Shown: piece after piece, positions 22,901-36,768 of the stretch
Position numbering within the stretch: the stretch's first letter is position 1
Layout: each line of letters opens with the position of its first letter
Assembly (NCBI GenBank): GCA_963767925.1
Contig: CAVYGB010000010.1
Span: 1,408,001-1,472,000, forward strand
Direction: 5' to 3'
Length of the DNA stretch: 64,000 nt
DNA from: an uncultured delta proteobacterium
GTDB taxonomy: Bacteria; Myxococcota_A; Polyangia; Fen-1088
Notes under the pieces: generated by a model
The model's database searches: none
Seen by the model: the letters and a program-made list of their open reading frames with translations, nothing else
What the model was told of the DNA's origin: nothing
Made by a program: the position numbers and the translations under genes

Positions 22901-23484
22901 TCCGGCTCGGTTCGATACTTGGCGCCGGCGGCGCCATGGGTGCCTGTCACGAGGACGAGTGGTCTACCGTCGAGACAGATCTCGTCGGCGGCGAATGAGC
23001 TCATCTCGAGCGCGCGCGGACGCTCGAAACGCTGGTTGTCGGAGGGGCAGCGGTGAATCAACGACTGCCCACCTGACACGGACCACCCTTGCCCGGCGTG
23101 GTCCTCACCGGCGTTGCTGGCGTAGACGAGCCGCATCTCAGGTGTGAGGCTGTTCCGTCCGTCCGGGACCCAAAGGCTGATCCCATAAGACGCCGTCCCT
23201 TTCGGCGAGACGGAGACAATGCCCGGCAAGGAACCGGCATCTTCGCTCGGGACGGTCGTCGAGCTCCCCGTGGAGAGCGGAGCGGCCCTGTCGGCGTCGG
23301 CCCCGGCGGCGCCCGGCGTGCGATCCAGGCCACTGCCACTGCTTCCCGCGGCGGCTGGTGAGCGGGGCTCATCCACCTGGGGCGCGCACGACAAAACGCC
23401 CAGCGTCGCGATCCTGATCGCCAGTGCGATGCGGAGCGCGCTGGACGGCACGCCCACTCGAAAGGCGAAAGCTTCTTTTCGCAT
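16942..23484 (-). CDS. SpvB/FG-GAP/RHS-repeat polymorphic toxin with a C-terminal HNH nuclease and an N-terminal lipoprotein signal
   Basis: GGAGG RBS before ATG 23484; VLSC lipobox; SpvB-like GTASYGISLWVP.GR..LTPEMRLVY; repeated DxNxDGxxD; YD repeats; FTGHE...RVYDP...PDP...NPLRFTDPSG core; CxxC...DHAIPKSRGG..N.Q.TCRTCN HNH. Confidence 0.93.
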   Translation of the reverse strand: MRKEAFAFRVGVPSSALRIALAIRIATLGVLSCAPQVDEPRSPAAAGSSGSGLDRTPGAAGADADRAAPLSTGSSTTVPSEDAGSLPGIVSVSPKGTASYGISLWVPDGRNSLTPEMRLVYASNAGEDHAGQGWSVSGGQSLIHRCPSDNQRFERPRALEMSSFAADEICLDGRPLVLVTGTHGAAGAKYRTEPDTFAEVSVLQADAVAPLRFEVRTRDGRIHEFGSIDASLLVQGWRESWEASSGVRTDSAVVNGAGTLVRYGWLRGVTRDRFANAITYRYLQPPEANAVLGFQEPRLKTIEYAHVGGQPTRVVQLEYAVRGDPGSFRETFIAGLKFRTTQKLTSIEVRVLPPRSSSFTSVRFYELGHSVSTATRRLLLLQVKECDGNPATAGRAVTCRKPTRFSYDPGSEEFLDIPTGITDVRNPLDADFWSIQPADLNNDGKDDIVYRARPPGASGGTPPRWFYRLSTGTGFSSAVDMGLQENTVGGDAIIADFANSDARPDIAVPASADSYAYYTNSSGGDVGFTAVLGGNLATAGGGLQLGDFGARGRLTLLRPLGGPGARWGYAVFTGGTVSDISGPMDASWEQNFNSAGWSGQPLDLDGDGATDALALPPDGGNRLLVMRQRRGTPLTPDRGQELASEFDYLDTTLLASGSGDLARYFFFDHNGDGLSDALRLRQGGATPTLIVNTGNDFGPPQSLSGLADSAANVGVGSSARWSDLADPGIRVTDFDRDGRQDIMLVDNGVVRDSALTSAPTRTTLQVLISRHDGFEVKSLSIPVGLPAEGHFKPTSPDVHNYKQSQLLDVNGDGLMDVVQVSAADQALHLYVREGSKPDLLTGVTDGMGKKATFAYLPMVDPSVYTTGPACEFPQQCVRRGHWLVRSLREDNGIGGAQNETQYLFRDGRIDLTGAGFLGFSSWVVSNLASSTTTTETFDLAATATVPMRSDPTMNVAVYSGLSVPVTRTVQTLDGGFTRLLSSTFGYEFVTTNSQRSYYTRPVTVHHVEEETRGSVTTRVRDELHTLVYDRSLNDFGLLSGVNSSATVAGGTLSRSWSSAYQNDANQWLIGVPLDRRETERTASGEATVRLTMFSPEPGRGVPRFVDIEPLGAADDFLRLEYVRNSFGQVTALRRMDRAAVIRQELVTYDEQSVHPRTHTNAVGHVTTVVADPATGRPRTVTDPNNIRTTLSYDFFGMLRRVDYPGGFGKAITYTREPETGSTPADGRDVWRVTTVFDGGGESRQIVNRLGQEIRHERKNFDGSVSFEDRAYDDLGLPAQRTRFARVGSAAGPATTWLYDELGRPTSQTRPEDGLDAGGAPTSTATSSFAHDGLTSTITDDFGRLRRVSLDEAGRIRRSETRNDAGQWLPAEFTYGPFDVLRFVTRRNGAGLAVQTTEARFDVRGRRLSLADPDAGTRTFRYNAFGDVREEVDANGNLTTYHRDAEGRLEERRDKDGVTTFTWDTAASGRGQIAETLSASGVKRRYSYDTAGRLSREVWTIRGTAYQIDYAYEAQGRLSKVSYPNVMGFSRFVVRNSYDSDSGDLSRVQNDATDKLLWELDATEADGQVVQESFGNGVRTEYGYSSRTGRIGTIKSTVPRSKTTVRSWSYGYWVDGNLQRRSDLLANEHERFEYDGLERIKSWMAADSAGNPLSGGWVVNYTLDDFGNLTRRQFVAGSSTGGTSQDLGFGVFPGTNRVQSSPWGTYSYDAGGNQVGRPDGETIAYTAFDLPKGIVGPRAADFSYDALGTRAEKRRSSADFTVYVGGIYEKRRSSAGTDHVFYVNTGGRALLQVTRREGGSESTSYVHRDRLGSVDAVMDGAGSVIERSRFDPYGNRVANFNEPKLPTSVAATTSKVKLGFTGHEGDEELGLVNMRGRVYDPRLARFLTPDPLVSRGLLGQAYNRYAYVLNNPLRFTDPSGFAADGCDAEEPYKLPNGSCVRTPPPGSLCLDYVCGWGEPTPAIPEPSSPPEPPTPPPGGGVGGGGPSPPPPPPPETPPTDPNPPAGSEGNGMTMGTTMVMPRPMAPPVPVAPPQPGAISRALGAAASWLAQGVTAIGAGLAAFVTITLYSPELNRGEREALQTRPPNILQQEGGGPKIGSEGGPGAGKPFSESTKDAVRTGECVFCGAPTTRQPGSDQANIDHAIPKSRGGNNTVDNAQETCRTCNQEKGTKTTEEYLQGR

Positions 23485-23672
23485 GCTCGCTCCTCCTCTG
23501 CCCGAGGCCACCCGGTCAGCGAGAGGGAACGTAGCCATCATTCTCAGATGCCAGTATTCGTAGGTTCACGTCATCTGGTGCCGGCGGATCGACCGGCGGT
23601 CGCCCGTCTGGCGTCACCAATCGCGCTACACCCGGCATTTCGAGGGCCACCCCGCCTACCCGGACATTGATG

Positions 23673-24633: not shown

Positions 24634-25965
24634 TCAGCGGCGCCGGCGCACGGGCGCGATGCCGTCCCAGGCGGCGTCGCCGGTGTTGCGGTAGCCGGCG
24701 GGCAGCTCGGTCCAGACCTGGCGGGTCAGGCCGTTGAGGTCATAGACCACCTTGCCATCGCGCACCGTCAGCTCGCACAGCAGGTTCTTGCTGGCGGACA
24801 GCCGGGCCCCGAAGCTGTCGACGAAGCCGAACTTGCCCCGCTGCAGGCGCAGCACCGCGATGTCGGCGGGGGCGCCCACCGACAGGTGGCCCAGCTCCTC
24901 GTGTTTGATCTCGCGGGCCGGGTTCCAGGTCGCGCGCAGCACCACGTCCTCGAGCGACAGGCCCAGGGCCAGGTACTTCGACATGACGTTGAGCATGTCT
25001 TTCATGCCGCCGTTCATGCTGCCGACGTGCAGGTCGGTGGAGAAGGAGTCGGGCAGCAGCCCCTCCTTCACCGCCGGCACCGCCACCCGCCAGATGAAGC
25101 TGCCGCCGCCGTGGCCCACGTCGAAGATAATCCCGCGCTTGCGGCCCTCCCAGATGCCGGCGCTCACCTTGCCGGCGTCGTCCTGCTCCTTGCGCAGGCC
25201 GGAGTGGACGTGGGTGTAGATGTCGCCCGGGCGCAGCTTCTTCGTGAGCAGCTCGATGAGCGGCCGCTCGGCCCGGTTGGCGCCGAAGTCGACCATCACC
25301 GGGATGCCGGCCATGGTGCCGGCCTCGACCGCCTGCTCGACCGGGGTCCACTCCGGGCCGTTGAAGTGGGCGGTCTTGATCCCCACCACCAGGCCCTTGT
25401 TGGCCAGGGCCATCTCCCCGGTGGGGCGGGCCTGCATGTCGGAGAGGTCCTGCTCGTATTTGCCCCCCCGCATGCCGTTGCCGACGATGTTGAGCATGGC
25501 CAGCACGCGGGTCTTGGCCCGCTCGATGACCCGCTTCTTGAACTCCGGGAAGTTGCGCCAGCCCGAGCCGCCGGCGTCGACGACCGTGGTGACTCCCGAG
25601 CGGAAGGTGAACCCGTCGGGCTGGACGCTGTTGTCGCCGGCGTAGGAGTTGGGCTCGCTGCCGGCGAAGACGTGGGCGTGGATGTCGACGAGGCCGGGCG
25701 TCACCAGCAGCCCCTTGACCGAGACGACCTTGAGGGCCTCGGCGGGATCGATCCGGGGAGCCACCGCCGCCACCTTGCCGGCGGCGATGGCCACGTCACG
25801 GACGGCGCTGAGCTTGTTCTTCGGATCGATGACCCGCCCGCCCCGCAGCAGCAGGTCGTATTTGTGGGCGCCGGCGCTCGGCTGGGCCCGGACCGCGGCA
25901 AGGGGGCTCAGCAGCAGGGCCACCGCCAGCAACACGCCGGCGGGTCGGGACATCGATCCGGGCAT
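24634..25965 (-). CDS. Amidohydrolase/deacetylase family metallohydrolase (dihydroorotase-like), with signal peptide
   Basis: PGLVDIHAH, GVTTVVDAG, GIK, IYTH, DVGHGGGSF, STDLH; N-terminal GVLLAVALLLSPLAAVRA-Q. Confidence 0.88.
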   Translation of the reverse strand: MPGSMSRPAGVLLAVALLLSPLAAVRAQPSAGAHKYDLLLRGGRVIDPKNKLSAVRDVAIAAGKVAAVAPRIDPAEALKVVSVKGLLVTPGLVDIHAHVFAGSEPNSYAGDNSVQPDGFTFRSGVTTVVDAGGSGWRNFPEFKKRVIERAKTRVLAMLNIVGNGMRGGKYEQDLSDMQARPTGEMALANKGLVVGIKTAHFNGPEWTPVEQAVEAGTMAGIPVMVDFGANRAERPLIELLTKKLRPGDIYTHVHSGLRKEQDDAGKVSAGIWEGRKRGIIFDVGHGGGSFIWRVAVPAVKEGLLPDSFSTDLHVGSMNGGMKDMLNVMSKYLALGLSLEDVVLRATWNPAREIKHEELGHLSVGAPADIAVLRLQRGKFGFVDSFGARLSASKNLLCELTVRDGKVVYDLNGLTRQVWTELPAGYRNTGDAAWDGIAPVRRRR

Positions 25966-25972
25966 GGGGACC

Positions 25973-26452
25973 TCAGATGTAGGCGATGACGTCTATCTCG
26001 ACCAGCGAGTTGCCGGGGATGCCGCCGGCGGCGGCGATGGTGGTGCGCACGGGCGGGTCCTCGCCGAAGCGCCCGCGGAACACCTCGTTCATGGCGTCGT
26101 AATCCTTGAGGTCATTGAGGTACACGTTGCACTTGAGGCACTTGTCCATCGACGAGCCGACCTCCTTGAGCTTCTTCTCGATCTCGTCGAGCACGTGTTT
26201 CGTGTGGGCCTTGATGTCGCCCTCGAAGTGCGCGCCCACCCCGGCGATGAACAGCAGATTGCCGAAGGAGACCGCCCCGGAAAACAGGGGCACCTGCTTG
26301 GGCCTGGCCCCCTTGCGGTGCACCTTCTTGCTGGGGGCCGCCTCGGCGGCCCGGGCGGCGCCGCTGGCCCCCGCCAGCGAGACCGCGGCGGCGGCCGCTC
26401 CCGCGGCAACCTTCAGGATGTGTCGCCTCTCGCTTCGCTTCTCGTTTTTCAT
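25973..26452 (-). CDS. RidA/YjgF family enamine/imine deaminase with a Tat signal
   Basis: ERRHILK plus Ala-rich h-region; KCNVYL, MNEVF, PPVRTT, LVEIDVIA. Confidence 0.88.
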   Translation of the reverse strand: MKNEKRSERRHILKVAAGAAAAAVSLAGASGAARAAEAAPSKKVHRKGARPKQVPLFSGAVSFGNLLFIAGVGAHFEGDIKAHTKHVLDEIEKKLKEVGSSMDKCLKCNVYLNDLKDYDAMNEVFRGRFGEDPPVRTTIAAAGGIPGNSLVEIDVIAYI

Positions 26453-26544
26453 GGGGTTCCTCCGAGGTTTTCTGGCCGACGAGGAGCGGCAGTTTACATA
26501 CCTTCCCGGCGTTCGACGCAAGACGAGCCGTTTCGACCAGGCGT

Positions 26545-26587
26545 TTGACACCACCTTGACACCCGTACACCGGCGTCCGTATAGACT
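26545..26587 (+). promoter_or_regulatory. Putative promoter/operator of the lactate permease gene
   Basis: TTGACACC twice at an 11-bp period (26545, 26556) and TAGACT at 26582-26587, 8 nt before GTG 26596. Confidence 0.4.
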
Positions 26588-26595
26588 CGCGCCCC

Positions 26596-28221
26596 GTGAA
26601 CGGCTGGCCCCAGAATTACGACCCACTGGGCTGGTGGCCGCTGTCGACGCTGGTCTCGGCGCTGCCCGTCCTGACGCTGTTTTTCTTCCTGGTGGTGCTG
26701 AAAAAGCGGGTCTGGATCTCGGCCCTGGCCGGCCTGATCGCCGCCGCGGCGCTGGCCGCCGGCGCCGTGGGCATGCCCGCGGTGCTGGTGCTGGCCTCGG
26801 CGGGGCACGGCTTCCTGTTCGGGATGCTGCGCATCGCCTGGATCATCGTGGCCTCGATGTTCCTCTACAACCTGTCGCTGTCGACCGGGCAGTTCCAGGT
26901 GATGAAGGACTCCATCGCCGGGCTCTCCTCGGACAAGCGGCTGCAGCTCATCCTGATCGCCTTCTGCTTCGGGGCCTTCCTCGAGGGGACCGGCGGCGGC
27001 GGCGCGCCGGTGGCGATCGCCGGCTCGTTCCTGATCGGCCTGGGCTTTCCCCCCTTCCAGGCGGCGACGTTGTGCCTGGTGGCCAACACCGCCCCGGTGG
27101 CCTGGGGCGCGGTGGGCAACCCGATCCGGGTGCTCGCCGGCGTCACTGGCCTGCCCGAGATGCAGCTCTCGGCCATGACCGGCCGGATCCTCGCCCCCTT
27201 CTCCCTGATCCTGCCGCTGTGGCTGGTGCGCAGCCAGGTCAACTGGCGCGAGACGCGCGAGGTGCTGCCCGCGGTGGCGGTGGCCGGCGTCTCCTTCGCC
27301 GGCATGCAGCTCTACTGGTCCAACTGGCAGGGCAGCGGCCTGGTCGACGTGGTGGCGGCCCTCTTCTCGCTGCTGATGATGGTGCTCTTCCTCAAGGTGT
27401 GGCGCCCGGCGCGGATCCTGCGTAACGAGGGCCAGAGCGAGGAGGTCGTCACCTCCCACAGCCACCTCGACGTCCTCAAGGGCTGGTCGCCCTTCCTGCT
27501 GGCCTCGGTCTTCATCTTCGTGACCGGCATGCCCTTCATCCGGAAGCACCTGCTGTTTCCGGCGCTGAGCTGGCCCATGCCCGCCCTGCACAACGCCGTG
27601 TTGCGGGTCCCGCCGGTGTCCCCCCGGCTCGAGCCGGAGTCGGCCATCGTCGACTTCAACTTCATCGCCCTGCCCGGCACCGCCGTCTTCGTGGCCGCCA
27701 TCCTCTCGGGCCTGCTGGCCGGCCTGCGCCTGTCGACGGTGATGCGCACCTTCGCCCGCACCGTGCGGGAGCTGATCCCCTCGCTGGCGTCGATCAGCTT
27801 CATGGTGGGGCTGGCCTACGTCACCAAGTACTCCGGCATGGACACGGTGATGGGCCTGTCGCTCACCCGCACCGGCGACTTCTTCCCCTTCTTCGGCACC
27901 CTGCTGGGCTGGCTGGGGGTGGCCCTCACCGGCACCGACGCCGGGTCGAACGCGCTGTTCGGCAACCTGCAGAAGGTGACCGCCGAGCAGCTCGGCATCT
28001 CGGCGGTCCTGATGGCCTCGGCCAACTCGGCCGGCGGCGTGATGGGGAAGATGATCGACGCCCAGTCGCTGGTCGTGTCAGCGACCGCCACCCGCCAGGT
28101 GGGCAACGAAGCGGCCATCTTCCGCGCCGTCATCAAGCACAGCATCGTCCTCGCCGCCCTGGTCGGCCTGGTGGTCACCCTCTACGCCCTGGTCCTGCCC
28201 GGGCTCATCCCCGGACCCTGA
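26596..28221 (+). CDS. lctP: L-lactate/glycolate permease (LctP family)
   Basis: Highly hydrophobic; FGAFLEG, ANTAPVAWGAVG.P, GTDAGSNALFGNLQ, GGVMGKMIDAQS. Confidence 0.9.
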   Translation: MNGWPQNYDPLGWWPLSTLVSALPVLTLFFFLVVLKKRVWISALAGLIAAAALAAGAVGMPAVLVLASAGHGFLFGMLRIAWIIVASMFLYNLSLSTGQFQVMKDSIAGLSSDKRLQLILIAFCFGAFLEGTGGGGAPVAIAGSFLIGLGFPPFQAATLCLVANTAPVAWGAVGNPIRVLAGVTGLPEMQLSAMTGRILAPFSLILPLWLVRSQVNWRETREVLPAVAVAGVSFAGMQLYWSNWQGSGLVDVVAALFSLLMMVLFLKVWRPARILRNEGQSEEVVTSHSHLDVLKGWSPFLLASVFIFVTGMPFIRKHLLFPALSWPMPALHNAVLRVPPVSPRLEPESAIVDFNFIALPGTAVFVAAILSGLLAGLRLSTVMRTFARTVRELIPSLASISFMVGLAYVTKYSGMDTVMGLSLTRTGDFFPFFGTLLGWLGVALTGTDAGSNALFGNLQKVTAEQLGISAVLMASANSAGGVMGKMIDAQSLVVSATATRQVGNEAAIFRAVIKHSIVLAALVGLVVTLYALVLPGLIPGP

Positions 28222-29820
28222 GGCCGACCCGTCTCCGCCCGGCGCGGGGGTGCGGTATCCGGCGAGCAGCCGCTCGATCTCCTCGATGGCGGTCGGCTTG
28301 CGCAGGTGCAGGTCGAAGCCGGCGGCGTGGGCCCGGGCGGCGTCCTCCGGCTGGCCGTAGCCAGTCAGCGCCACCAGCAAGATGTCGGGCCCCAGGGCGG
28401 CCCGCACCCGGCGGGCCACCTCGTAGCCGTCGATGCGGGGCAGGCCGATGTCGATGAGCGCCACCTCCGGCCGGGAGGTGAGGGCCTTTTTTACCCCCAT
28501 CTCGCCGTCGGCGGCCGCCTCCACCCGGTGCCCGATCTCGGACAGCAGCTCCTGCAGCGATTCCCGGATGTCCTCGGCGTCCTCCACCAGCAGCACGTGG
28601 CGGGGCTGGACCGAGCCGGCGACGGGCGGCGCGGCCGCGGCGCTCGGCGCGCGGGGGGCCACCGCCCGCTCCCACCCGGAGGTGAGCGGCAGGCGGAGGG
28701 TGAAGGTGCTCCCCCGGCCTGGCCCCTCGCTGTCCACCTCGACCCGCCCAGCGTGCAGCTCCACCAGCGATCGCACGACGGTGAGCCCCAGCCCCATGCC
28801 CCCCTGGGCACGGTCGAGCGTGCGGTCGGCCTGGGCGAAGGGCTCGAAGATCGTGGGCAACACGTCCCGGCCGATGCCGACCCCCGTGTCGGCCACCCGC
28901 ACCACCGCCCAGCCGGACTCGGCCCTGAGCGAGATCGTCACGTGCCCGACGGCCGGGGTGTATTTGAAGGCGTTGGTCAGCAGGTTGGTGAAGACCTGGT
29001 ACAGGCGCACGGGATCGCCGTCGAAGACGACCTCCTGCGCGGGCAGGTCCCAGACGAGCCGGGGCCCGATCCTCGCCTCGCCGGGAACCACCTCCTCGAC
29101 CGCCGCCCGCAGCAGGCCACCGATTTCGACGATTTGCCGTTGCAGGGTGATCTTCCCCGAGGTCACCCGGGCCACCTCGAGCAGATCGTCGACCAGGCGG
29201 GTGAGGTGGCCGATCTGCCGTTCGATCACCGACAGCGGGCGCTGGCCGGGCGTGTCCACCGAGCGGCGCAGCTTCAGGGTTTCGGAGGCGTGGCGGATGG
29301 CCGACAGGGGGTTGCGCAGCTCGTGGCCCAGCATGGCCAGGAACCGATCCCGGTGCCGCAGCTCCGACTCGCGCTGATCGAGCGCCCGGCGGGCCTGGTA
29401 CTGCCGCTGGCGCGCGCGCAGGGCCGCCCGGGCCGCGCTCACCAGGGTGGCAGGGTGCACCGGTCGCTCGAGGGCGGTCACGTTGCCCAGGCCGGCCAGC
29501 GACTCCAGCACGCGCAGGTTCTGGCTGGCCGAGGCCCCCCGGGCGGTGAAGACGACGATGGGAAAATCCGACCAGGGGGGCTGCTGGGCCAGCGCCGCCG
29601 AGGCCAGCGCCAGCGACGCGGGAGTGAAGGCCTCCTCAACCACCACCGCCGCGCCCGCCCCCCGCCGCAGCTCGCCCAGCAGCGTCTCCATGTCCGGGCA
29701 GACCCGGGCGGCGAGCCCGTGTTGCTCGAGCAGGCCGGCGGTCAAGGTGGCGTCGCGGCCGTAAGGGGCCAGCACCAGCACCCGGTGCTCGTCGACGCCG
29801 GACTCCCGCTCAGGCGGCAT
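28078..29820 (-). CDS. Hybrid sensor histidine kinase/response regulator
   Basis: N-terminal degenerate REC, HELRNPL H-box, N/G1/F/G2 boxes, C-terminal REC (LIDIGLP..DGYE). Confidence 0.9.
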   Translation of the reverse strand: MPPERESGVDEHRVLVLAPYGRDATLTAGLLEQHGLAARVCPDMETLLGELRRGAGAAVVVEEAFTPASLALASAALAQQPPWSDFPIVVFTARGASASQNLRVLESLAGLGNVTALERPVHPATLVSAARAALRARQRQYQARRALDQRESELRHRDRFLAMLGHELRNPLSAIRHASETLKLRRSVDTPGQRPLSVIERQIGHLTRLVDDLLEVARVTSGKITLQRQIVEIGGLLRAAVEEVVPGEARIGPRLVWDLPAQEVVFDGDPVRLYQVFTNLLTNAFKYTPAVGHVTISLRAESGWAVVRVADTGVGIGRDVLPTIFEPFAQADRTLDRAQGGMGLGLTVVRSLVELHAGRVEVDSEGPGRGSTFTLRLPLTSGWERAVAPRAPSAAAAPPVAGSVQPRHVLLVEDAEDIRESLQELLSEIGHRVEAAADGEMGVKKALTSRPEVALIDIGLPRIDGYEVARRVRAALGPDILLVALTGYGQPEDAARAHAAGFDLHLRKPTAIEEIERLLAGYRTPAPGGDGSASGSGDEPGQDQGVEGDHQADQGGEDDAVLDDGAEDGRFVAHLAGGGR

Positions 29821-31291
29821 CGCCGCCCAGCAGGCCGGCAGCGCCGCCCAGGTAGTCGGGCGCGCCGGTCAGCACGCCCTTGAACTCCGCCAGGGCGGGA
29901 CCGACCTGCACCCCCTTGTCGCTCAGGTGCAGCTCCCGGATCGACGACTCGTGGCGCCCCGTGCGCTTCTTGAGCACGGAGATGGCCTTGCGCACCCGCC
30001 CGGCCGCCTCGAAGTGGCGGGTCAAGATGACCGTGTCGGCCAGGTAGCTGACGTCGGCCGGGCTGGTGATGCCGCCGCCCACCAGGCCGTGCTGGGCCAT
30101 CGTGAGGAGGGTCAAGATGCCCCGCTGGCCCAGGTAGGCCAGCAGCTCGTGGAGCTGCAGGATGAGAAAGTCCTCGCTCGGCATGGCGTTGAGGTAGCCG
30201 TTGAGGCTGTCGATGATGACGATGCGGCTGTTGGCCCGCTCGACCTGCAGGCGGACCTGGCCGGCGAACTGCCCGGGCGGCACCTCGGCGGGGTCGATCT
30301 GGCGCAGGGTCACCTTCCCCGAATCGACGTGGCGGGCGAGATCGAGACCGAGCGAGCGCGAGCGGACCATCAAGGTGGCCAGGCTCTCGTCGAAGGCGTA
30401 ATGGGCGACGTTGTCGCCGCGGGCGGCCGCCGCCGTGATGAGCTGGGTGGCGAGGGCCGACTTGCCGGTGCCGGCCGGCCCCAGCAGCAGCGCGCTGGTC
30501 CCCGGCTCGAAGCCCCCGCCCAGCAGGGTGTCGAGCTCGGGCAAGCCGGTCGTGATGGGCGCCCGGGAAAACTCCTGGTGGTGCTCGGCCGCCACAAGAC
30601 GGGGGAAAACCTCGAGTCCCCCCGGGGCGAGGGCGAAGTCGTGGTACCCACCCCGGAAGTCGACGCCTCGGAGCTTGAGCACGCGCAGACGCCGGCGGTG
30701 GGCCCCGTAGGTCGGCGCGAGCTGCTCGAGCCGGACCACCCCGTGCACGAGGCTCTCGAGGTGGCCGTCGTTGCCGCCGCTGTGATCGTCGATCAGCAGG
30801 ACGGTGCAGTTCCGGTCCGCGAAATATTGCTTGAGGGCGAAGACCTCCCGCCGGTAGCGGAGCTGGCTCTGGGCCAGCAGCCGGATCTCCGAGAGCGAAT
30901 CGAACACCACCCGCTGCGGCTGCAGCTCCCGGCACCGATTCACGACCGCCCGGGTGGTCTCGGCCAGCTCCACCTCGGAGGGGTGAAACAGCGTGTTCTC
31001 ATCCTCGCCGCTGAGCGCCCCCGGCGGGGCCAGCTCGTGCAGATGTAACCCCTCCAGGGAGAAGCCGTGAGAGCGGGCTACCTGGGTCAGCTCCTCGCGG
31101 GTCTCGGAGAGGGTGACGTACAGGCAGCGCTCGCCGCGGCGCACGCCTTCCAGGAGATATTGCAGCGCGAGGGTGGTCTTGCCGACCCCCGGGTCACCCT
31201 GGATCAGGAGGAGGCGGCCACGCGGGAACCCACCCCGCAGGATGTCGTCCAGGCCGGCCACCCCCGTGGAAGAGACAGAGGCCTCGGTCAT
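29810..31291 (-). CDS. KaiC-like double RecA-domain ATPase
   Basis: Two Walker A motifs (GDPGVGKT, GPAGTGKS), VSYLADTV, LKKR; overlaps the kinase start. Confidence 0.9.
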   Translation of the reverse strand: MTEASVSSTGVAGLDDILRGGFPRGRLLLIQGDPGVGKTTLALQYLLEGVRRGERCLYVTLSETREELTQVARSHGFSLEGLHLHELAPPGALSGEDENTLFHPSEVELAETTRAVVNRCRELQPQRVVFDSLSEIRLLAQSQLRYRREVFALKQYFADRNCTVLLIDDHSGGNDGHLESLVHGVVRLEQLAPTYGAHRRRLRVLKLRGVDFRGGYHDFALAPGGLEVFPRLVAAEHHQEFSRAPITTGLPELDTLLGGGFEPGTSALLLGPAGTGKSALATQLITAAAARGDNVAHYAFDESLATLMVRSRSLGLDLARHVDSGKVTLRQIDPAEVPPGQFAGQVRLQVERANSRIVIIDSLNGYLNAMPSEDFLILQLHELLAYLGQRGILTLLTMAQHGLVGGGITSPADVSYLADTVILTRHFEAAGRVRKAISVLKKRTGRHESSIRELHLSDKGVQVGPALAEFKGVLTGAPDYLGGAAGLLGGDAA

Positions 31292-31394
31292 CGTGAGAAC
31301 GTAATACCGAGGGTCAGGCTGTCGAGTCCCCTCTGTACTTTTTTGGCGGGTTCCGACCCGCCGCGCCTGGGCCCTCTCGGGGCGAATCCCGATC

Positions 31395-32624
31395 TCAGCG
31401 GGTCGGTGCGGCGATCAGCGTGATCTCGATGATCGACGTGCCGACCAGCTTGGACACGGCGGTCGTGGTCAGGGCCGGCGGGTCCTTGGGGAAGGTCTCG
31501 CGGAAGACCGCCAGCACCTTGTCCTGATCGTTCAGATCGGTGAGGTACACCTTGGCCTCCACCACGTCGCCGAAGCTGCCTCCCCCCTTCTGGAGGGCGC
31601 TGCCGATGCCCTCGAGCGCGGCCTTGGTGTGGGCCTCGATGCCGTCGCCCTTGCCGACCTTGCCGGCGGGATAGACCAGCGGACCGGCGGCCACCACCTC
31701 GCTGAAGTTCGGGTTGGGGCGGGCGCCCTCCGGCAGGAACACCTGCTTGCCGCTGCGGGTGGCGACGAAGGTGATCTCGATGGGGACGTCGCCGGGCAGC
31801 GCGGGCACACCGACCGTGGTGCGCGAGGGCGGCTCGGAGGCGAAGAAGGTGCGGTACACCTCGTTCATGCGGCCGATCATCGCCATGTCGGTGAGGTAGA
31901 CGTTGGCCGTCACCACGTTGGCCGGCGTCATGCCGGCCGACTCGAGCAGCAGGCGGATGTTCTCGAGGGTCTGCTTGGTGTGGGCCTCGATCTCGCCCGC
32001 GGGGAGCTGGCCGGTCTTGACGTCGCGGCTGCCCTGCCCCGACAGATAGAGGGTGTCGCCCACCAGCACCGCCGGCGCGTAGGGCAGCTTGGGATTGGCC
32101 GGCACGCCGGCCGGCTGGACCGCCTTGTGGGGCTTGCGCGAGGCGATGAAGGCCACCTGGAACCGGGCCCCGCCGGGCAGCGCCGGGACCGCCACGGTGG
32201 TGCGCGCGGGCAGGTTCGACTTGAAGTAGCCCCGGTACACGCCGTTCATGGCGTCGAAGCTCTTGATGTCGGTGAGGTAGAGGTTGGCCTTCACGACGTG
32301 CGAGAAGCCGAGGCGGGCGGCTTTCAGGATGCGGCCGGCGTTGTCGAGGGCGGCCTTGACCTGGGCCTCGAAGCTGTCGGGCAGCTTGCCGGTCTTCGCG
32401 TCGGCCCCGGTCTGACCGGCGACGAACAGGGTGTCGCCGACCAGCAGGGCCGGGCTGGCCGGCGCGGCCTCGCCGGTCGCCGGCGCCTTGGCGGCGGCGG
32501 GGCGGATCACCTTGCGGCCAGAGGCGGCGGGGGCAGCCTCGGCGGCGCGGGGGGAGAAGGCGTCGGCCAGGACCGCCAGGGCGAGCGTGGCGAGGACGAA
32601 GGTGGGGAAGGCTGGGCGGGTCAT
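31395..32624 (-). CDS. Exported protein with three tandem RidA domains
   Basis: Signal-like N-terminus; three repeats ending LPARTT, PPSRTT and PPALTT. Confidence 0.85.
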   Translation of the reverse strand: MTRPAFPTFVLATLALAVLADAFSPRAAEAAPAASGRKVIRPAAAKAPATGEAAPASPALLVGDTLFVAGQTGADAKTGKLPDSFEAQVKAALDNAGRILKAARLGFSHVVKANLYLTDIKSFDAMNGVYRGYFKSNLPARTTVAVPALPGGARFQVAFIASRKPHKAVQPAGVPANPKLPYAPAVLVGDTLYLSGQGSRDVKTGQLPAGEIEAHTKQTLENIRLLLESAGMTPANVVTANVYLTDMAMIGRMNEVYRTFFASEPPSRTTVGVPALPGDVPIEITFVATRSGKQVFLPEGARPNPNFSEVVAAGPLVYPAGKVGKGDGIEAHTKAALEGIGSALQKGGGSFGDVVEAKVYLTDLNDQDKVLAVFRETFPKDPPALTTTAVSKLVGTSIIEITLIAAPTR

Positions 32625-32634
32625 GGATGTCTCC

Positions 32635-34242
32635 TCATTCGGAACGGCGGCGGCCGCCCTGGCGGCGGCGGGCCGACCAGCGGGCGGCGAGGTATTCGCC
32701 GAGGTCGAGCTCGCCGGACATCTTGTCCTGCTCCACCGTCCCGGTGAAGCCGTAACCGATGTTGTCCCCGTTTTCCCGGTAGAAGCTCTGCAGGCGCACG
32801 AGGTTGCCCTCGATGCTCCCCTGCACGTCGCGGCCGGCGAAGTCGCCCTGGTGGGTGCCGGCCAGCTCGGCCCCCTGCTGGCGCAGAAAGAGGGAGTGGC
32901 GCGAGCGGCTGCCGACGTATTCGATGTCCACGTCCCAGTGGCCGCTGAGGTCGGCCACCGGCGGGCGGGGCGCCTCGCGCGGGCGGGCCTTCTGGGCGCC
33001 GGCCAGGGTGGCGTGGATCCGGTTGGCCACGATCTTGGAATCCCCGGGCTGCATCATGTACGCCATGATGCCGATGCTGGTCTCGGCGCTCTCCATGGCG
33101 CGGCGGGCGCGACCGCCCCCGTCCTCCGAGAGGACGATGCGCGGCTCGCTCGTGAACAGCACGCGCGACACTTCCTGCCCGGTGATGCCCAGCTTGCGCG
33201 GGTCCCAGCTCAGGCGCAACGAGGGGCTGCGGTTGGACAGGCCGCGCGGCTCGGCCCGCAGATCGGCGGTGACCCCCTCGATGCTGGTGACCTTCTTGCT
33301 GATCTGCTCCATCCAGGAGACCCAGCGGTTCCACTCCGCCTTGTGGTCGCGCTTCATCCAGGTCTCGACCGCCACCAACATGCCGATGGCCTCTTCCTTG
33401 CCGACCTTCATGGCCCGGCCGAAGCCGTGGTGGGGGGCGCTGTGCACCCAGGCCGCCCGCACCAGGTCCTTGCGTCCCAGCAGCAGGCCCGCGCACTGCG
33501 GTCCGCGCAGGCACTTGCCCCCGCTGTAGCCGACCAGGGCGGCGCCCCGCTGCAGGTGCACGTTGGGGACGGTGAGGATCTCGGCGGCCGCGTCGACGAA
33601 CACCGGCACCTTGCGGGGGTTGGCCAGGCGGGTGATCACGTCGAGCGAGAGAGGGCCGTTCTCCGAGCGATCGCCGGCCAGCACGTAGACCATCGCCGTG
33701 CGCGGACCCAGCGCCGCTTCCATCTCTTCGGGGGTCTCCACCTCGACGACCCGCACGCCGACCGCCCGCACGGCGGCGTCGTACACGTTGCGCGAGTAGC
33801 CGGGGATGATCACCTCGTCCTTGTCGAAGCCGGCCAGGTTGGGCAGGCGGACGTGGCGGTCGGGGTTGGCCCCCGCCACGCAGGCGGCGGTGGAGTGGGA
33901 GATGGCTGCGGCGCAGCCCGAGGTGACCATGCCCCACTCGGCGCCAGTGAGCGTCGCCAGCCGGCGCCCGATGCCCTCCATCAGCTCGTCGAGCTGGACG
34001 AAGTGCTGGGCGGCGGCCTCCTTGGCGGCGCGCACCTCGGGCAGCTCGAGCGAGCCGCCGATGATGGTGTGGGTCCCCTTGCAGTTGATCACGGGTCGGA
34101 CCCCGATCGACTCGAAGATGCGCGAGCCGACACGCACGCCGGCCGAGGGGGTGGCAGCGCTGGCGGACTTTCCGCTCAGGACGCCGGGCAGCGCCAGGAG
34201 GGCGCCTCTCTCGAACAACTTACGCCTGCTTATTCCGCGCAC
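32635..34242 (-). CDS. SelA-like / DgaE-like PLP-dependent enzyme with a Tat signal and an extra C-terminal beta domain
   Basis: ISRRKLF Tat motif, GVRPVINCKGT.T..GGS, VDAAAE, YSGGK.LRGPQ (PLP lysine), RAMKVGKEE; GGAG RBS before GTG 34242. Confidence 0.85.
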   Translation of the reverse strand: MRGISRRKLFERGALLALPGVLSGKSASAATPSAGVRVGSRIFESIGVRPVINCKGTHTIIGGSLELPEVRAAKEAAAQHFVQLDELMEGIGRRLATLTGAEWGMVTSGCAAAISHSTAACVAGANPDRHVRLPNLAGFDKDEVIIPGYSRNVYDAAVRAVGVRVVEVETPEEMEAALGPRTAMVYVLAGDRSENGPLSLDVITRLANPRKVPVFVDAAAEILTVPNVHLQRGAALVGYSGGKCLRGPQCAGLLLGRKDLVRAAWVHSAPHHGFGRAMKVGKEEAIGMLVAVETWMKRDHKAEWNRWVSWMEQISKKVTSIEGVTADLRAEPRGLSNRSPSLRLSWDPRKLGITGQEVSRVLFTSEPRIVLSEDGGGRARRAMESAETSIGIMAYMMQPGDSKIVANRIHATLAGAQKARPREAPRPPVADLSGHWDVDIEYVGSRSRHSLFLRQQGAELAGTHQGDFAGRDVQGSIEGNLVRLQSFYRENGDNIGYGFTGTVEQDKMSGELDLGEYLAARWSARRRQGGRRRSE

Positions 34243-34516
34243 TGGGTGCTCCGTTCTGATCGCTAACCACACTGCGAGCGCGCAGGGCGGTCAAGGGTGC
34301 CGTCGTAAAAAGTCCGTGATCGGGGCGCGCTGAGCGGAAAAGTTTACCGAAGGGAGCAGAAATCCCGCAGCCGGCCGGGCAAAAGGCTGAGCCCGGGCCA
34401 GACGCGGGGCCGCGCCGGCGGCGACGATAACGCTTGGCCTCGCCGGCGTCTTGGCGTTTCATCCCTGACGCGACGACCGTCTTCCGGCAACCTCGTCCGG
34501 CGCACAGGAGAGACAG

Positions 34517-35311
34517 ATGAAGCAGCCGACCCGATCCCTCCCCCAGATGTTCTTCTTCGCGCTGGCGCTGATCGCCGGCGCGGCGGGCAGCCTGGCCTGC
34601 CGCTCGTCGGAGGCGGCCCAGGCCCCGGCGGCGGCCGAGGCGGCGCCCGGGCAGGCCGAGATCCTGGCCGAGCTGCGCAAGGCCAGCACGGGCAACGTGT
34701 CGGACGCGGTCGACGAGGCCACCGGCCAGCGCGGGTTCATGTTCCACGACATGAAGCCCGCCTACCGAAGCAAGCTGACCCGCAAGGTGGTGGGTCGGGC
34801 GGCGACCGCCCTGCTGCGCCCGGTGCTGAAGAACGACGGGCGCACCTACGAAAACGCCGCCCTGCAGGTGCTGGACGAGGCCGCCCCCGGCAGCGTGCTG
34901 GTCTACGTGCTGGAGAACGGCCTCGAGATCGCCGGGCTGGGCAACCTGATGGCGACGACGGCCAAGACGCGCGGTCTGGCCGGGGTGGTGATCGACGGCG
35001 GGGTCCGCGACGTCGACGAGGTGGAGGACATCGGCCTGCCGGTCTGGAGCCGCAGCATCACGCCGGCGACGTCGGTGGGTCGCTACGTGAGCGTGTCCAA
35101 GCAGCAGCCGGTCACCTGCGGCGGGGTGGTGGTGCGGCCGGGGGACTACATCATCGCGGACTGGACCGGCGTCGTCTCGATCCCGCAGGAGAAGATCGGC
35201 GACGTGGTCAAGCTGCTGCGCCAGTACGACGCCAAGGAGAGCAAGATGGTCGGCATCATCAAGGAGACCAAATCGATGCTCAAAGCCCTGGCGAAGTACA
35301 ATCGGTACTAA
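34517..35311 (+). CDS. RraA-like / HMG-aldolase family lipoprotein
   Basis: Lipobox SLAC; NVSDA, G.LMAT..K.RGLAGVVIDGGVRD, V.PGD.I.AD..GVV; AGGAG RBS. Confidence 0.85.
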   Translation: MKQPTRSLPQMFFFALALIAGAAGSLACRSSEAAQAPAAAEAAPGQAEILAELRKASTGNVSDAVDEATGQRGFMFHDMKPAYRSKLTRKVVGRAATALLRPVLKNDGRTYENAALQVLDEAAPGSVLVYVLENGLEIAGLGNLMATTAKTRGLAGVVIDGGVRDVDEVEDIGLPVWSRSITPATSVGRYVSVSKQQPVTCGGVVVRPGDYIIADWTGVVSIPQEKIGDVVKLLRQYDAKESKMVGIIKETKSMLKALAKYNRY

Positions 35312-35433: not shown

Positions 35434-36768
35434 ATGGCGCGCGCTCTCACGCTTGGCTGGTTGGGTCCGCTGCTGCTCGGGGCTCTGGCTGCCTGTACGG
35501 CGGTCAAGGAGCACTTTCCGCCGGGGACGGAGCCGCTGCCCGACCCGAGCGCGGGATCTGGCGGATCGGTCGGGCCGGCTCCGGCGCCGGTGCCGCCGGT
35601 CGGGAGCACGCCGACGCCCTCCCCCAGCGGGCCGCCCGCCGGGACCGGGGGAGCGGCGCCGCCGCCGGTCGGCACGGTTCCGCCGCCGCCGGGCACCGCC
35701 CCGCCGCCGAACGTGGGCGGCGGGGGCGCCGGTGGCAACGCCGGCATGCCGATGCCCCCGGCCGGCATGGCCCCACCGCCGGGCACCGCACCTCCCGCGC
35801 CGCCTCCGGGCGTCGGAACGCCGGGCGGGCCCGGGGCGGCGACCGTCGAGATCGGGGGCCAGCAGGTCCCGGGCGACAAGGTCCTCGTGTTCATCCACAT
35901 CGGCCAGTCGAACATGGCCGGGCGGGCCCAGGAGCCGGCGTCGCTGTTCAACCATTTCATCTGGTACGGGCGGGGCCTGCCCAACGGGCGGCCGGATCCG
36001 CAGTTCGATCCCGATCCCCTGCCCTACGATCCGAAGATCTGGATGTTCGATCTGATGGGCAAGTTCATCCCCGCGCGCGAGCCGACCGCCAGCGACGAGT
36101 CGGACGAGGCGGGCGCCGGGCCGGGCATGGGCCTGCTGCGGGCGGCCCGGGCCAAGTGGCCCGACCACACGATCGTGTCGATCGGCCGAGGGCAATCGGG
36201 CCAGCGGGGCGGCTACTGCGCCCACTTCCTCGAGCGCAATCCGGTGACAAACCAGCCCTGGTCGACGGTCCCGCCGGTGCGCCAGAACGAGGCCGAGGGG
36301 GAGAAGCGCTACGGGTTTTACGACGAGGTGATCAACCGCCGGGCGCTCAAGCTCAAGGGCAAGGTCGTCTTCGGCGGCATCGTCGCCATGTTCGGCTCGA
36401 CCGAGGACCGACCGGGTGCCCCCGTCCCCAGCCCCCCGGCGGAGCCCTTCCTGTCCCAGTGCCTGATCAAGCTGGCCCAGACCTACCGCGAGGTGCTGGG
36501 CGACCCGAACATCCCGTTCATCATCACCGACTTCGAGCACGGGGCCGGTGAATACAGCTACAACGGCGCGCTCGGGCAGAAGGTGCGCCGGCAGGTGCGC
36601 CTGGCCCAGGGGATGATTCCCCGCAGCGAGATCCTCCCGACCGACGCCATCCAGATGCGGGACGACCACCACTACACCATGCAGGGGCACAAGACCTGGG
36701 GCGAGACCGCCGTCCAGATCATCTCCAGGAACGCCTGGGACACCTGGACCGCGCCGCCCGCGAACTGA
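35434..36768 (+). CDS. SGNH carbohydrate esterase (sialate O-acetylesterase/CE6-like) lipoprotein
   Basis: Lipobox LAAC, Pro-rich linker, IGQSNMAG, GPGM, DDHHY (DxxH). Confidence 0.75.
   Translation: MARALTLGWLGPLLLGALAACTAVKEHFPPGTEPLPDPSAGSGGSVGPAPAPVPPVGSTPTPSPSGPPAGTGGAAPPPVGTVPPPPGTAPPPNVGGGGAGGNAGMPMPPAGMAPPPGTAPPAPPPGVGTPGGPGAATVEIGGQQVPGDKVLVFIHIGQSNMAGRAQEPASLFNHFIWYGRGLPNGRPDPQFDPDPLPYDPKIWMFDLMGKFIPAREPTASDESDEAGAGPGMGLLRAARAKWPDHTIVSIGRGQSGQRGGYCAHFLERNPVTNQPWSTVPPVRQNEAEGEKRYGFYDEVINRRALKLKGKVVFGGIVAMFGSTEDRPGAPVPSPPAEPFLSQCLIKLAQTYREVLGDPNIPFIITDFEHGAGEYSYNGALGQKVRRQVRLAQGMIPRSEILPTDAIQMRDDHHYTMQGHKTWGETAVQIISRNAWDTWTAPPAN

Follow-up and report, generated by a model that had tools for sequence, protein, structure and literature searches.

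Textbooks place PLP-dependent elimination, and the RidA clean-up that follows it, in the cytoplasm, and periplasmic PLP enzymes are few. Our literature search found no paper on an exported RidA or an exported DgaE-like lyase. The closest functional analogue of the locus described here is the Ong pathway for oxidised chitin (GlcNAc1A) in Pseudoalteromonas prydzensis ACAM 620 (PMC9537276). In the available part of that paper, TonB-dependent receptors import the substrate, the amidohydrolase-superfamily deacetylase OngB acts first, the PLP deaminase OngC turns a non-phosphorylated amino-aldonate into KDG and ammonia, and the RidA protein OngD is essential for growth. OngB, OngC, OngD and KdgK are cytoplasmic and act after uptake by an SSS transporter, and KDG is phosphorylated. 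The Salmonella D-glucosaminate pathway, made up of DgaE (DGL, PDB 7LC0/7LCE), DgaF and the DgaABCD PTS, is alike in its type of reaction, in which a beta-hydroxy D-amino acid first loses ammonia and is then split by aldol cleavage, but it is cytoplasmic, is fed a 6-phosphate substrate by the PTS and ends with an Eda-type rather than an RraA-type aldolase (PMC9529869, as far as its available text goes). In the cluster of Gluconacetobacter diazotrophicus that encodes a Tat-exported L-amino acid oxidase, a RidA gene lies beside the gene for this Tat-signal amino-acid-deaminating enzyme and a cytochrome c; this grouping, as given in the accessible text, is a hint of imine handling outside the cytoplasm, although the enzyme is a flavin oxidase and not a PLP lyase (PMC5053998). 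Finally, three tandem-fused RidA domains, presumably forming a covalent trimer, are described in the 3x-RidA proteins such as EF_0115 (Niehaus et al. 2015, PMC4433059, text available in part).

The window analysed here is a 64,000-nucleotide stretch of DNA from a soil myxobacterium. A cluster at positions 24634-35311 differs from the Ong pathway in that every one of its enzymes carries a predicted N-terminal export signal, and a sixth protein predicted to be exported is encoded directly downstream of the last of them. The genes are as follows.

24634..25965, minus strand: predicted Sec-exported amidohydrolase/deacetylase-family metallohydrolase, 443 aa (NF006689; signal at about residues 1-27)
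25973..26452, minus strand: predicted exported RidA with one domain, 159 aa (PF01042 at 1.1e-19; Tat-like signal SERRHILK)
26596..28221, plus strand: LctP-family permease (TIGR00795), divergent from the RidA-amidohydrolase pair
28078..31291, minus strand: hybrid histidine kinase/response regulator and KaiC-like ATPase (Pfam HisKA/HATPase_c/Response_reg, KaiC)
31395..32624, minus strand: predicted exported triple RidA, 409 aa, with three RidA domains (three PF01042 stretches), 10 bp downstream of the PLP gene
32635..34272, minus strand: DgaE/SelA-like fold-type-I PLP enzyme with a Tat signal and a C-terminal 8-strand beta-barrel (TIGR01437, 7lc0; probable start GTG 34242)
34517..35311, plus strand: RraA/HMG-aldolase-like lipoprotein, 264 aa (PF03737 at 1.7e-35), divergent from the PLP gene
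35434..36768, plus strand: SASA-family (sialate O-acetylesterase-like) lipoprotein (PF03629 at 5.2e-11; lipobox LAAC)

Because normally intracellular enzymes here all bear export signals, they probably form a periplasmic route on which amino (sugar) acids are deacylated, deaminated and cleaved by an aldolase. The reading that we favour, with some reservation, is that the cluster is a periplasmic catabolic module assembled from enzyme families that are usually cytoplasmic.

Export signals on five clustered enzymes had been proposed in a preliminary description of this DNA, and all five are present and conserved across homologs. We assigned them by eye and with a crude rule for hydrophobicity, giving most weight to whether homologs conserve them. 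In what follows a slash marks the predicted cleavage site. The amidohydrolase has a Sec-type N-terminus, MPGSMSRPAGVLLAVALLLSPLAAVRA/QPS, with family homology from residue 35, and the Sec signals of its homologs in other loci end just ahead of a conserved KYDLLLKGG. The signal of the triple RidA is also of Sec type and ends AAEA/A; a signal-like N-terminus is found in 92 of 102 full-length homologs, whereas the available text on 3x-RidA proteins contains neither the word "periplasm" nor the word "signal" (PMC4433059). The single-domain RidA has the Tat-like SERRHILK, then an Ala-rich h-region, then AARA/A; its residues 4-48 weakly match the TAT-target model TIGR02811, and homologs in other loci, at 65-78% identity, have SNRRxFL. 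Among the PLP-enzyme homologs the twin-arginine (RR) motif is kept in 106 of 120. Tat substrates, which TatABC exports, have a motif of the S/T-R-R-x-F-L-K type, an h-region of moderate hydrophobicity and an AxA site. A motif and a region layout of this kind are present and conserved here, export itself being predicted; TatC was found in the genome. The RraA-like protein has the lipobox GSLAC/R, which is the canonical AVAGC/R in its nearest homologs, and the 119 homologs include 102 with a signal-like N-terminus and 20 with a lipobox.

One could suppose that these signals are start-codon artefacts and that the proteins are cytoplasmic, as the stored call for the PLP gene (P0007) begins past the RR motif. 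However, the likeliest start of this gene, a GTG at 34242 with GGAG 6 nt upstream, lies 18 codons ahead of that call, gives MRGISRRKLF and agrees with the starts of the closest homologs. The RidA gene begins with an ATG that has GGAGGAA upstream. Such Shine-Dalgarno sequences ahead of the upstream starts, the conservation of the leaders as protein sequence in more than 100 homologs per family, and family cores that begin right behind the predicted cleavage sites speak against this, and an artefact is very improbable indeed.

The amidohydrolase reaches 422.1 bits against NF006689 (cut-off 371), while OngB belongs to the D-aminoacylase branch and not to NF006689 (PMC9537276, available part). Among solved structures it comes closest to 8je0 ("Amidase", E=1.3e-43) and 2ics, and the metal ligands align with those of 8je0: HxH (DIHAH), Lys (GIKTAH) and Asp (STDLH). 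For TIGR00004, with a cut-off of 106.25 bits, the triple RidA scores 233 bits over its three domains and the single-domain RidA 65.7 bits, which is too low for that model. Arg105 of TdcF/RidA is the conserved arginine required for imine hydrolysis (PMC4433059, accessible text). In the single-domain protein the arginine of PPVRTT (ppvRtti against kpaRvav of 2dyy) aligns with the conserved one of three solved RidA homologs. Reading the triple RidA directly, we find PARTTV in domain 1 and PSRTTV in domain 2; domain 3 has PPALTTT and so no longer has the arginine.

The PLP enzyme had been called DgaE-like, and this is correct as to resemblance: DgaE (7lc0) is both the best sequence match (E=2.7e-36) and the top Foldseek hit. 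The PLP lysine is kept, with YSGAK aligned to YSGGK (K253), and R267 aligns with Arg-226 of DGL, which is the alpha-carboxylate arginine (PMC9529869, available text); R16/R17, K253 and R267 are invariant among 31 sequences. Family membership does not follow. The scores are 159.1 bits for TIGR01437 (cut-off 385.3) and 156 bits for a second model (cut-off 600). Additionally, DGL conserves His-162 and His-163, the second of which gives a proton to the enzyme-bound enamine (PMC9529869), but here SHH of 7lc0 aligns with AGD (H162/H163 to G/D) and the family consensus at this place is LAGPRA. We therefore rejected the assignment as a true DgaE on the cut-offs and the missing histidine pair. The Salmonella enzyme also differs in being, in the part of its description available, without a C-terminal barrel and without a Tat signal (PMC9529869). 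The barrel here was modelled with a pLDDT of 88.7, and the model resembles avidin and designed barrels (Z 11-13). For DgaE, a cluster of the arginines 301, 332 and 346 was placed at the 6-phosphate by manual docking (PMC9529869); R301 aligns with a serine, and the alignable region stops at chain residue 323-328, short of R332 and R346. DgaE is furthermore cytoplasmic and encoded with a mannose-type PTS, while this family has a conserved Tat motif and a search of the genome, 83.8% complete, gave no PTS IIC component (PF03609), in line with the preliminary description; the control for this search was positive in 3 of 14 genomes.

The second-best match to the PLP enzyme, by sequence (E=2.1e-26) and by Foldseek (7.5e-16), is Cap15 (8t7j), an O2-dependent PLP enzyme with chemistry unlike that of DgaE; the resemblance to it is nearly as great as that to DgaE. 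This opens a different reading, in which the SelA-like enzyme would not eliminate ammonia but would carry out an oxidative, decarboxylating or transaminating reaction on a periplasmic metabolite; RidA would handle the imine, and the cluster would modify or detoxify rather than feed central metabolism. The low DgaE scores, the absent histidine pair and the extra barrel domain would all fit. However, every search ranks DgaE above Cap15, the arginine that binds the carboxylate is kept, and RraA proteins of aldolase type and deacylases turn up repeatedly as partners, as would suit catabolism, which leaves this reading rather improbable.

For the favoured periplasmic catabolic module we infer where the proteins are, in what order they react and on which substrate, and what the aldolase and LctP do, as follows. 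The Sec-exported amidohydrolase would strip an N-acyl group, most likely N-acetyl, from an N-acylated alpha-amino acid, the likeliest substrate being a 2-amino-2-deoxy sugar acid such as N-acetylglucosaminate. The PLP enzyme would leave via Tat, folded with its cofactor, and perform an alpha,beta-elimination (the ammonia-lyase reaction) on the free amino acid. Since it has no His-163 proton donor for protonation on the enzyme, it probably releases the enamine/imine, and the exported RidA proteins would hydrolyse this to a 2-keto-3-deoxy acid and ammonium. The RraA-like lipoprotein, as a class II pyruvate-aldolase type, would cleave that acid to pyruvate and an aldehyde, and LctP may import the small acids. 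The preliminary idea of a non-phosphorylated route is borne out to the extent that a deacetylase, a PLP deaminase and RidA acting on N-acetylglucosaminate are known biochemistry in the Ong pathway (PMC9537276, in its available part). There the deaminase OngC is a fold-type III PLP enzyme, as against fold type I here, and KDG is handed to a kinase route that the proposed RraA-like aldolase would replace (PMC9537276).

For the aldolase the earlier assignment proved too strong. The RraA-like protein scores under every aldolase cut-off, with 102.4 bits against 179 for NF006731 and 97.1 against 304.5 for TIGR02798 (the HMG/CHA aldolase models). Its best solved match is nevertheless the HMG/CHA aldolase of Pseudomonas putida (3noj, E=1.5e-18), which shares the RraA fold and whose GVRD (residues 121-124) aligns with a GVRD here; we take Arg-123 and Asp-124 of 3noj to be the catalytic pair of the HMG/CHA aldolase. 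The Pseudomonas enzyme is cytoplasmic and serves aromatic degradation, whereas the protein here is a predicted lipoprotein. To our knowledge no RraA-fold enzyme cleaves KDG. RraA, the regulator of RNase E, was rejected as an identity: the score against NF006875 is 56.3 bits (cut-off 136), and the protein has 264 aa and a lipoprotein signal against about 160 aa for the cytoplasmic regulator.

The permease belongs to its family (473.4 bits against TIGR00795, cut-off 341.15) and falls under the equivalog cut-offs for L-lactate permease and GlcA. The known substrates of LctP proteins are lactate and glycolate and not pyruvate. Here it may be an importer of the acid products. The tie between LctP and the signal-bearing homologs is weaker than proposed: of 80 loci just one, L001, has it linked to a SelA-like gene. 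That locus is from the same genus, at 82% identity, and shares its contig with L082. Between the two gene groups lie the KaiC-like and hybrid kinase genes, which interrupt the cluster and are probably unrelated to the module: in the 80 related loci no KaiC-like gene was found, and the kinase gave only generic hits, in 6. The SASA-family gene was found in none of the 80 and has 7 further paralog matches in the genome; it is a possible accessory that is not conserved with the cluster.

The other enzymes recur together. Amidohydrolase genes are near SelA-like genes in 20 of 80 loci and RidA genes in 18, and in other genomes these neighbours have Sec and Tat signals. Within 500 bp of the PLP gene (79 loci) we counted 11 amidohydrolases, 6 RraA-like genes and 5 RidA genes, and at least one of these three partners occurs in 31 of the 79; among 17 further PLP-gene loci, 9 have the amidohydrolase. 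Gene fusions add to this. A genome of the same family encodes an 818-aa protein with one signal peptide, three RidA domains and the amidohydrolase, with a Tat SelA-like gene coming after it; P0378 is an amidohydrolase-SelA-like fusion, and P0375 is a predicted exported amidohydrolase fused to a YhcH/DUF386 domain. The families, conserved signals, linkage and fusions are matters of observation, and the proposed co-occurrence of signal-bearing PLP enzyme, amidohydrolase, RidA and RraA-like homologs in other genomes is supported.

Whether the RraA-like protein belongs to the unit is a narrower matter. Its own subfamily is in only 3 of 80 loci (tblastn), which, with the scarcity of LctP, SASA and KaiC-like genes and two divergent promoter regions in which no common operator was found, would suit a unit of PLP enzyme, amidohydrolase and RidA only, the RraA-like, LctP, SASA esterase and regulator genes being accidental neighbours. 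Against this, a second RraA-like subfamily lies directly downstream of the PLP gene elsewhere (6 of 79 within 500 bp, plus L086, L093 and L094), and RraA-like, PLP and LctP genes are adjacent again, in rearranged order, on the same-genus contig. We consider so small a unit quite improbable. Because 48 of 79 loci are without amidohydrolase, RidA or RraA-like genes, the PLP enzyme is not bound to one fixed pathway; at about 20 of the 79 no partner family was found within 10 kb. The distribution is patchy, at 5 of 61 related genomes with this one included, and suggests horizontal transfer.

Among 8000 candidates scored, at least 7563 clusters at 90% identity reach E<=1e-10, so the PLP family is a large one; it is concentrated in soil Acidobacteriota, where the neighbours of its gene include PQQ-cytochrome c dehydrogenases, lactonases and TonB-type outer-membrane barrels. 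In 26 of 79 loci the dehydrogenase is no more than 10 kb away, and in 10 of 79 no more than 500 bp, whereas the PQQ matches in four acidobacterial genomes number only 2-23 per genome; L005, L040, L054 and L090 each group a lactonase gene with PQQ dehydrogenase and PLP genes. TonB-type barrels abound (44-54 or more matches in three of four Acidobacteriota genomes), so that 31 of 79 loci with one inside 10 kb hardly exceed what chance would give, and enrichment shows only in the 12 of 79 that have one inside 500 bp. These neighbours fit an amino-aldonate made in the periplasm from an imported amino sugar.

The same module could be exported and yet work on a substrate that is not a sugar acid. 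N-acyl-D-amino acids or small peptides, for instance cell-wall debris, would be deacylated; D-serine, D-threonine or 3-hydroxyaspartate would be deaminated; RidA would yield pyruvate, 2-oxobutyrate or oxaloacetate, the RraA-like protein would be an oxaloacetate decarboxylase and LctP would import the acid. The compound on which DgaE acts counts, in formal terms, as a D-alpha-amino acid. The functional analogue OngC accepts D-serine and D-threonine for deamination as well, and OngB is closest to D-aminoacylases (PMC9537276, available part). The best RraA-like matches are named aldolase/oxaloacetate decarboxylase. Beside the cluster in this window we found no PQQ dehydrogenase, lactonase or TonB-type barrel, hence no adjoining sugar-oxidising enzyme, and the PQQ-cytochrome c dehydrogenase of this genome is on a separate contig. 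The lactonase and PQQ dehydrogenase that recur beside the PLP gene in Acidobacteriota, the exported amidohydrolase-YhcH/DUF386 fusion and the SASA-family carbohydrate esterase directly downstream in the window speak for a sugar acid instead, and we hold the other kind of substrate to be unlikely.

In its widest form the sugar-acid reading would give soil Acidobacteriota, and by transfer a few Myxococcota, a complete ATP-independent, non-phosphorylative periplasmic pathway. Amino sugars from chitin or cell-wall necromass would enter via TonB-type barrels, be oxidised by a PQQ-cytochrome c dehydrogenase passing electrons to the respiratory chain, and go through ring opening by a lactonase, deacetylation, deamination by the Tat-exported PLP lyase with the first known periplasmic RidA proteins removing the imine, and the RraA-fold aldolase to pyruvate, so that only small acids and ammonium cross the inner membrane. 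We put this forward tentatively, as a doubtful proposal.

Soil Acidobacteriota are hard to grow, and their carbon and nitrogen sources are poorly known. This window contributes a case from a myxobacterium in which a triple RidA, an RraA-like lipoprotein and LctP occur; the patchy distribution and the fusion proteins, which tie the parts together, are further additions. If amino-sugar acids are degraded outside the cytoplasm, this would be a new route in soil from microbial necromass to ammonium and pyruvate. RidA would then do more than protect cytoplasmic enzymes, and the module would show clearly how the addition of signal peptides can relocate a whole pathway.

The five enzymes that the preliminary description had credited with N-terminal export signals all have leaders, these leaders are conserved across homologs, and the SASA protein next to them, which it had overlooked, is a sixth. 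The genes concerned, with those lying among them, are the following.

24634-25965, minus strand: amidohydrolase (NF006689, 422 bits against a cut-off of 371)
25973-26452, minus strand: single-domain RidA
26596-28221, plus strand: LctP permease
28078-29820, minus strand: hybrid histidine kinase/response regulator
29810-31291, minus strand: KaiC-like ATPase
31395-32624, minus strand: triple RidA
32635-34272, minus strand: DgaE/SelA-like PLP enzyme
34517-35311, plus strand: RraA-like protein
35434-36768, plus strand: SASA-family (sialate O-acetylesterase-like) lipoprotein

The window has a G+C content of about 70% and comes from a genome of 9.3 Mb in 13 contigs, 83.8% complete, in which there is one copy each of the genes for the amidohydrolase, the PLP enzyme and the RraA-like protein. 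Its nearest public relative is the same-genus locus L001, labelled Myxococcota. The SASA gene lies directly 3' of the RraA-like gene; its product has a long Pro/Gly/Ala-rich linker and seven more paralog matches in the genome. The convergent LctP and hybrid kinase ORFs share 144 bp at their 3' ends (28078-28221), and the kinase tail past the receiver domain is low-complexity sequence antisense to LctP. A motif comparison of the divergent promoter regions 26440-26610 and 34260-34530 found only one GC-rich 9-mer in common, and a search of sequencing runs for the window returned no RNA run and three soil DNA runs with word shares of 0.06-0.07. Outside the cluster, a 2199-aa Rhs/YD-repeat-type protein (16942-23541, minus strand), whose C-terminal end looks HNH-nuclease-like by eye, is presumably a polymorphic toxin for bacterial competition. 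On the other side (36874-41256, minus strand) a glycosyltransferase-like gene with an EryCIII-like C-terminal domain is followed by phytoene synthase-like and phytoene desaturase-like ORFs, again by eye.

We assessed the signals chiefly by their conservation among homologs. The amidohydrolase has a Sec-type leader ending in AVRA-Q, and homology to its family starts directly after it, at residue 35; homologs adjoining PLP genes elsewhere have varied hydrophobic leaders, which stop immediately ahead of the conserved (K/R)YDLLLKGGHVIDP. The start codon of the single RidA, an ATG, has GGAGGAA upstream; its N-terminus reads MKNEKRSERRHILK and continues into an Ala-rich stretch, and RidA homologs in other PLP-gene loci bear SNRRxFL. 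The leader of the triple RidA is of Sec type and ends in AAEA-A, and lipoboxes are found in the RraA-like protein (SLAC) and the SASA protein (LAAC). By a crude hydrophobicity rule that also flags signal anchors (a 10-residue Kyte-Doolittle mean of at least 1.9 with at least one K or R ahead), 92 of 102 triple RidA homologs of at least 370 residues and 102 of 119 RraA-like homologs are leader-positive; 20 of the latter have a lipobox, the nearest relatives among them. The genome encodes TatC.

The stored gene call for the PLP enzyme, P0007, uses a TTG start 18 codons past the first possible start and thereby loses the conserved twin arginines; several database homologs seem to be truncated in the same way. 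The best start is the GTG at 34242, which has GGAG six bases upstream and is also where the closest homologs begin, and from it the N-terminus reads ISRRKLFERGALLALPGVLSGKSASA. An RR motif is present in the first 45 residues of 106 of the 120 best homologs. The other 14 comprise nine that lack the N-terminus through truncation or a miscalled start, three near-variants (e.g. RREWF) and two with long N-terminal extensions that place the motif past residue 45. Both arginines are invariant in an alignment of 31 sequences. Signals created by wrong starts are thus very unlikely, and at the level of sequence the export-signal observation is confirmed.

The PLP enzyme is best matched in sequence and fold by DgaE (DGL, PDB 7LC0/7LCE) and second best by Cap15, an O2- and PLP-dependent enzyme. 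As a member of the curated DgaE family it was rejected, with 159 bits against a cut-off of 385. It keeps the PLP lysine (K253) and an arginine (R267) whose counterpart in DGL sits at the alpha-carboxylate (PMC9529869). The DGL pair His-162/His-163 is replaced by Gly-Asp in the alignment. In DGL this pair is described as strictly conserved, with His-163 protonating the enamine on the enzyme, and the authors suggest that this histidine prevents release of a reactive enamine (PMC9529869). The absence of His-163 from the window's enzyme would readily account for its close pairing with RidA. DGL has three arginines placed at the phosphate by docking: R301 has a serine opposite it in the alignment, and the sequence and profile alignments end near residue 323-328, before Arg-332 and Arg-346. 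The full-length model is of moderate quality (mean pLDDT 71), so we make no residue-level structural claims from it. An extra C-terminal domain absent from DgaE (residues 430-545; window 32638-32985, minus strand), when modelled alone, reaches a pLDDT of 88.7 and forms an eight-stranded up-and-down barrel similar to avidins and to designed ligand-binding barrels (Z 11-13, rmsd 1.7-3.0 A). This domain is conserved, with invariant Trp, His, Gly and Tyr positions.

Among the partner enzymes, the single RidA keeps the arginine that is required for imine hydrolysis (PMC4433059), and the triple RidA keeps it in two of its three domains, the third having a leucine. The triple RidA EF_0115 described in the same paper is of this type; neither a signal nor the periplasm figures in that paper's text. 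The RraA-like protein is closest to the CHA aldolase/oxaloacetate decarboxylase 3noj, whose GVRD pair it matches in the alignment, and its score is under every aldolase cut-off. A literature search on PDB code 8JE0, an amidase structure near to the amidohydrolase, found no paper.

These families are also found fused. In G018, whose genome belongs to the window organism's family, a single protein of 818 aa (L102:92-2548, plus strand) unites three RidA domains with the amidohydrolase behind one signal peptide. The gene after it encodes a Tat-signal SelA-like protein that starts MKSNRRQFLK; this is the short form, with 433 aa and lacking the C-terminal barrel. A library-wide search with this fusion returned P0378, a leaderless 762-aa fusion of amidohydrolase and SelA-like protein, and P0375, an exported amidohydrolase joined to a YhcH/DUF386 domain; YhcH has been described as a sialic-acid anomerase (PMC8141875). 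In a further protein, P0366, the same amidohydrolase family is joined to an inosine-uridine nucleoside hydrolase domain. The fusions link RidA, amidohydrolase and PLP enzyme independently of gene order.

To examine gene linkage, a pattern search through one genome for each species was made and yielded 474 stretches that code for PLP-enzyme relatives. The 80 best loci, nearly all from Acidobacteriota and one from Myxococcota, were taken further. Searching these 80 by tblastn with the window proteins found the amidohydrolase in 20, the single RidA in 18, the window's RraA subfamily in three, LctP in one and KaiC and SASA in none. ORF clustering covered the 79 loci having a central PLP gene. Within 500 bp of that gene we find a TonB-type barrel (12 loci), amidohydrolase (11), PQQ-cytochrome c dehydrogenase (10), a second RraA-like subfamily (6), an exported 244-aa family (6) and RidA (5); within 10 kb the counts are 31 for the barrel, 26 for the PQQ dehydrogenase, 18 for amidohydrolase, 13 for RidA, 8 for cytochrome c, 7 for RraA-like and 6 for SMP-30-type lactonase. 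At least one of amidohydrolase, RidA and RraA-like is present in 31 of the 79 loci, and at least one of all partner families in 59. Since 15 of the 80 loci span less than 12 kb, these counts are lower bounds. Of four acidobacterial genomes examined, three have 44 to at least 54 barrel matches each, so we estimate that a barrel within 10 kb is near chance and only immediate adjacency seems enriched. For PQQ the acidobacterial genomes have 2 to 23 matches each, which puts the dehydrogenase linkage well above chance. Another 17 loci gave the amidohydrolase in nine and an RraA-like gene in four (L082 among them is the same contig as L001), and scanning metagenomes with the PLP protein returned 13 loci of greater distance, the known 82-85% identical relatives not among them. 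For the closest relatives, PLP and triple-RidA homologs agree in the length of the longest contig (5396, 12897, 57779, 18736 and 92163), an indirect hint at conserved synteny. The 244-aa family, which matches nothing in Pfam, is repeatedly located between the PLP gene and the cytochrome c/PQQ dehydrogenase genes (e.g. L008:11630-12364, plus strand; 10 of 79 loci within 10 kb). Tat-like leaders also occur in acidobacterial loci on further enzymes of cytoplasmic type, namely MR_MLE enolase-superfamily, DUF362 and a 300-aa family without Pfam match.

Loci of these further proteins with Tat-like leaders
L031:12986-14221, minus strand; L066:5103-6395, plus strand; L075:4670-5986, minus strand
L031:7859-8974, plus strand
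L075:6864-7778, plus strand

Signal-bearing homologs co-occur in other genomes, as leader-bearing amidohydrolases and RidAs beside PLP genes and as fusions. The periplasmic pathway proposed from the window alone is partly supported by the enzyme families, the conserved leaders and the linkage; its transport step is weaker, LctP being linked in only one of 80 loci. The best-supported reading is a module in which the substrate would be deacylated in the periplasm, ammonia would be eliminated by the PLP enzyme, RidA would assist imine hydrolysis and aldol cleavage would follow, with LctP uptake of the products as a possible last step.

We infer a sugar-acid substrate from the kinship with DgaE, the YhcH-domain fusion, gene groups of lactonase, PQQ dehydrogenase and PLP enzyme (L005, L040, L054, L090), which fit oxidation of aldose to lactone to aldonate, and the Ong pathway. 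In the latter non-phosphorylated N-acetylglucosaminate is turned into KDG by a deacetylase and a PLP deaminase together with a RidA that is essential (PMC9537276). The Ong enzymes are described there as cytoplasmic and OngC has another PLP fold, so the parallel is one of analogy, not of homology. A D-amino acid or hydroxy-amino acid is a serious rival as substrate. No sugar-oxidising enzyme adjoins the cluster in the window; the genome's PQQ-cytochrome c dehydrogenase is on another contig (C8), where its neighbourhood held nothing cluster-related, and is 77% identical to its ortholog adjacent to the cluster on the same-genus contig L001. By eye, from the CGCGNC motif, it lies near a PqqB-like ORF (C8:2730169-2731170 and 2736685-2739174).

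The PLP gene is present in five of 61 related genomes, the window's own counted, and among these the long form occurs, apart from the window genome, only in the same-genus genome, at 70% identity. With the best nine candidates scored per genome, at least 14 of the 151 genomes sampled from the acidobacterial phylum have it at E<=1e-60 (one positive, G111, is flagged unpublished), and individual genomes there encode about five paralogs. The closest homologs beyond the genus are metagenome proteins 82-85% identical, followed by acidobacterial ones at 60-69%. This patchy distribution suggests horizontal transfer of the gene into Myxococcota. A literature search, with most subscription journals outside its coverage, turned up no account of a DgaE-like lyase or a RidA that is exported, nor of a pathway for amino-sugar acids in the periplasm. 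In the acidobacterial phylum more enzymes may have been relocated to the periplasm, and the cluster itself would represent a new variant of known catabolic chemistry, predicted to have been moved to the periplasm.
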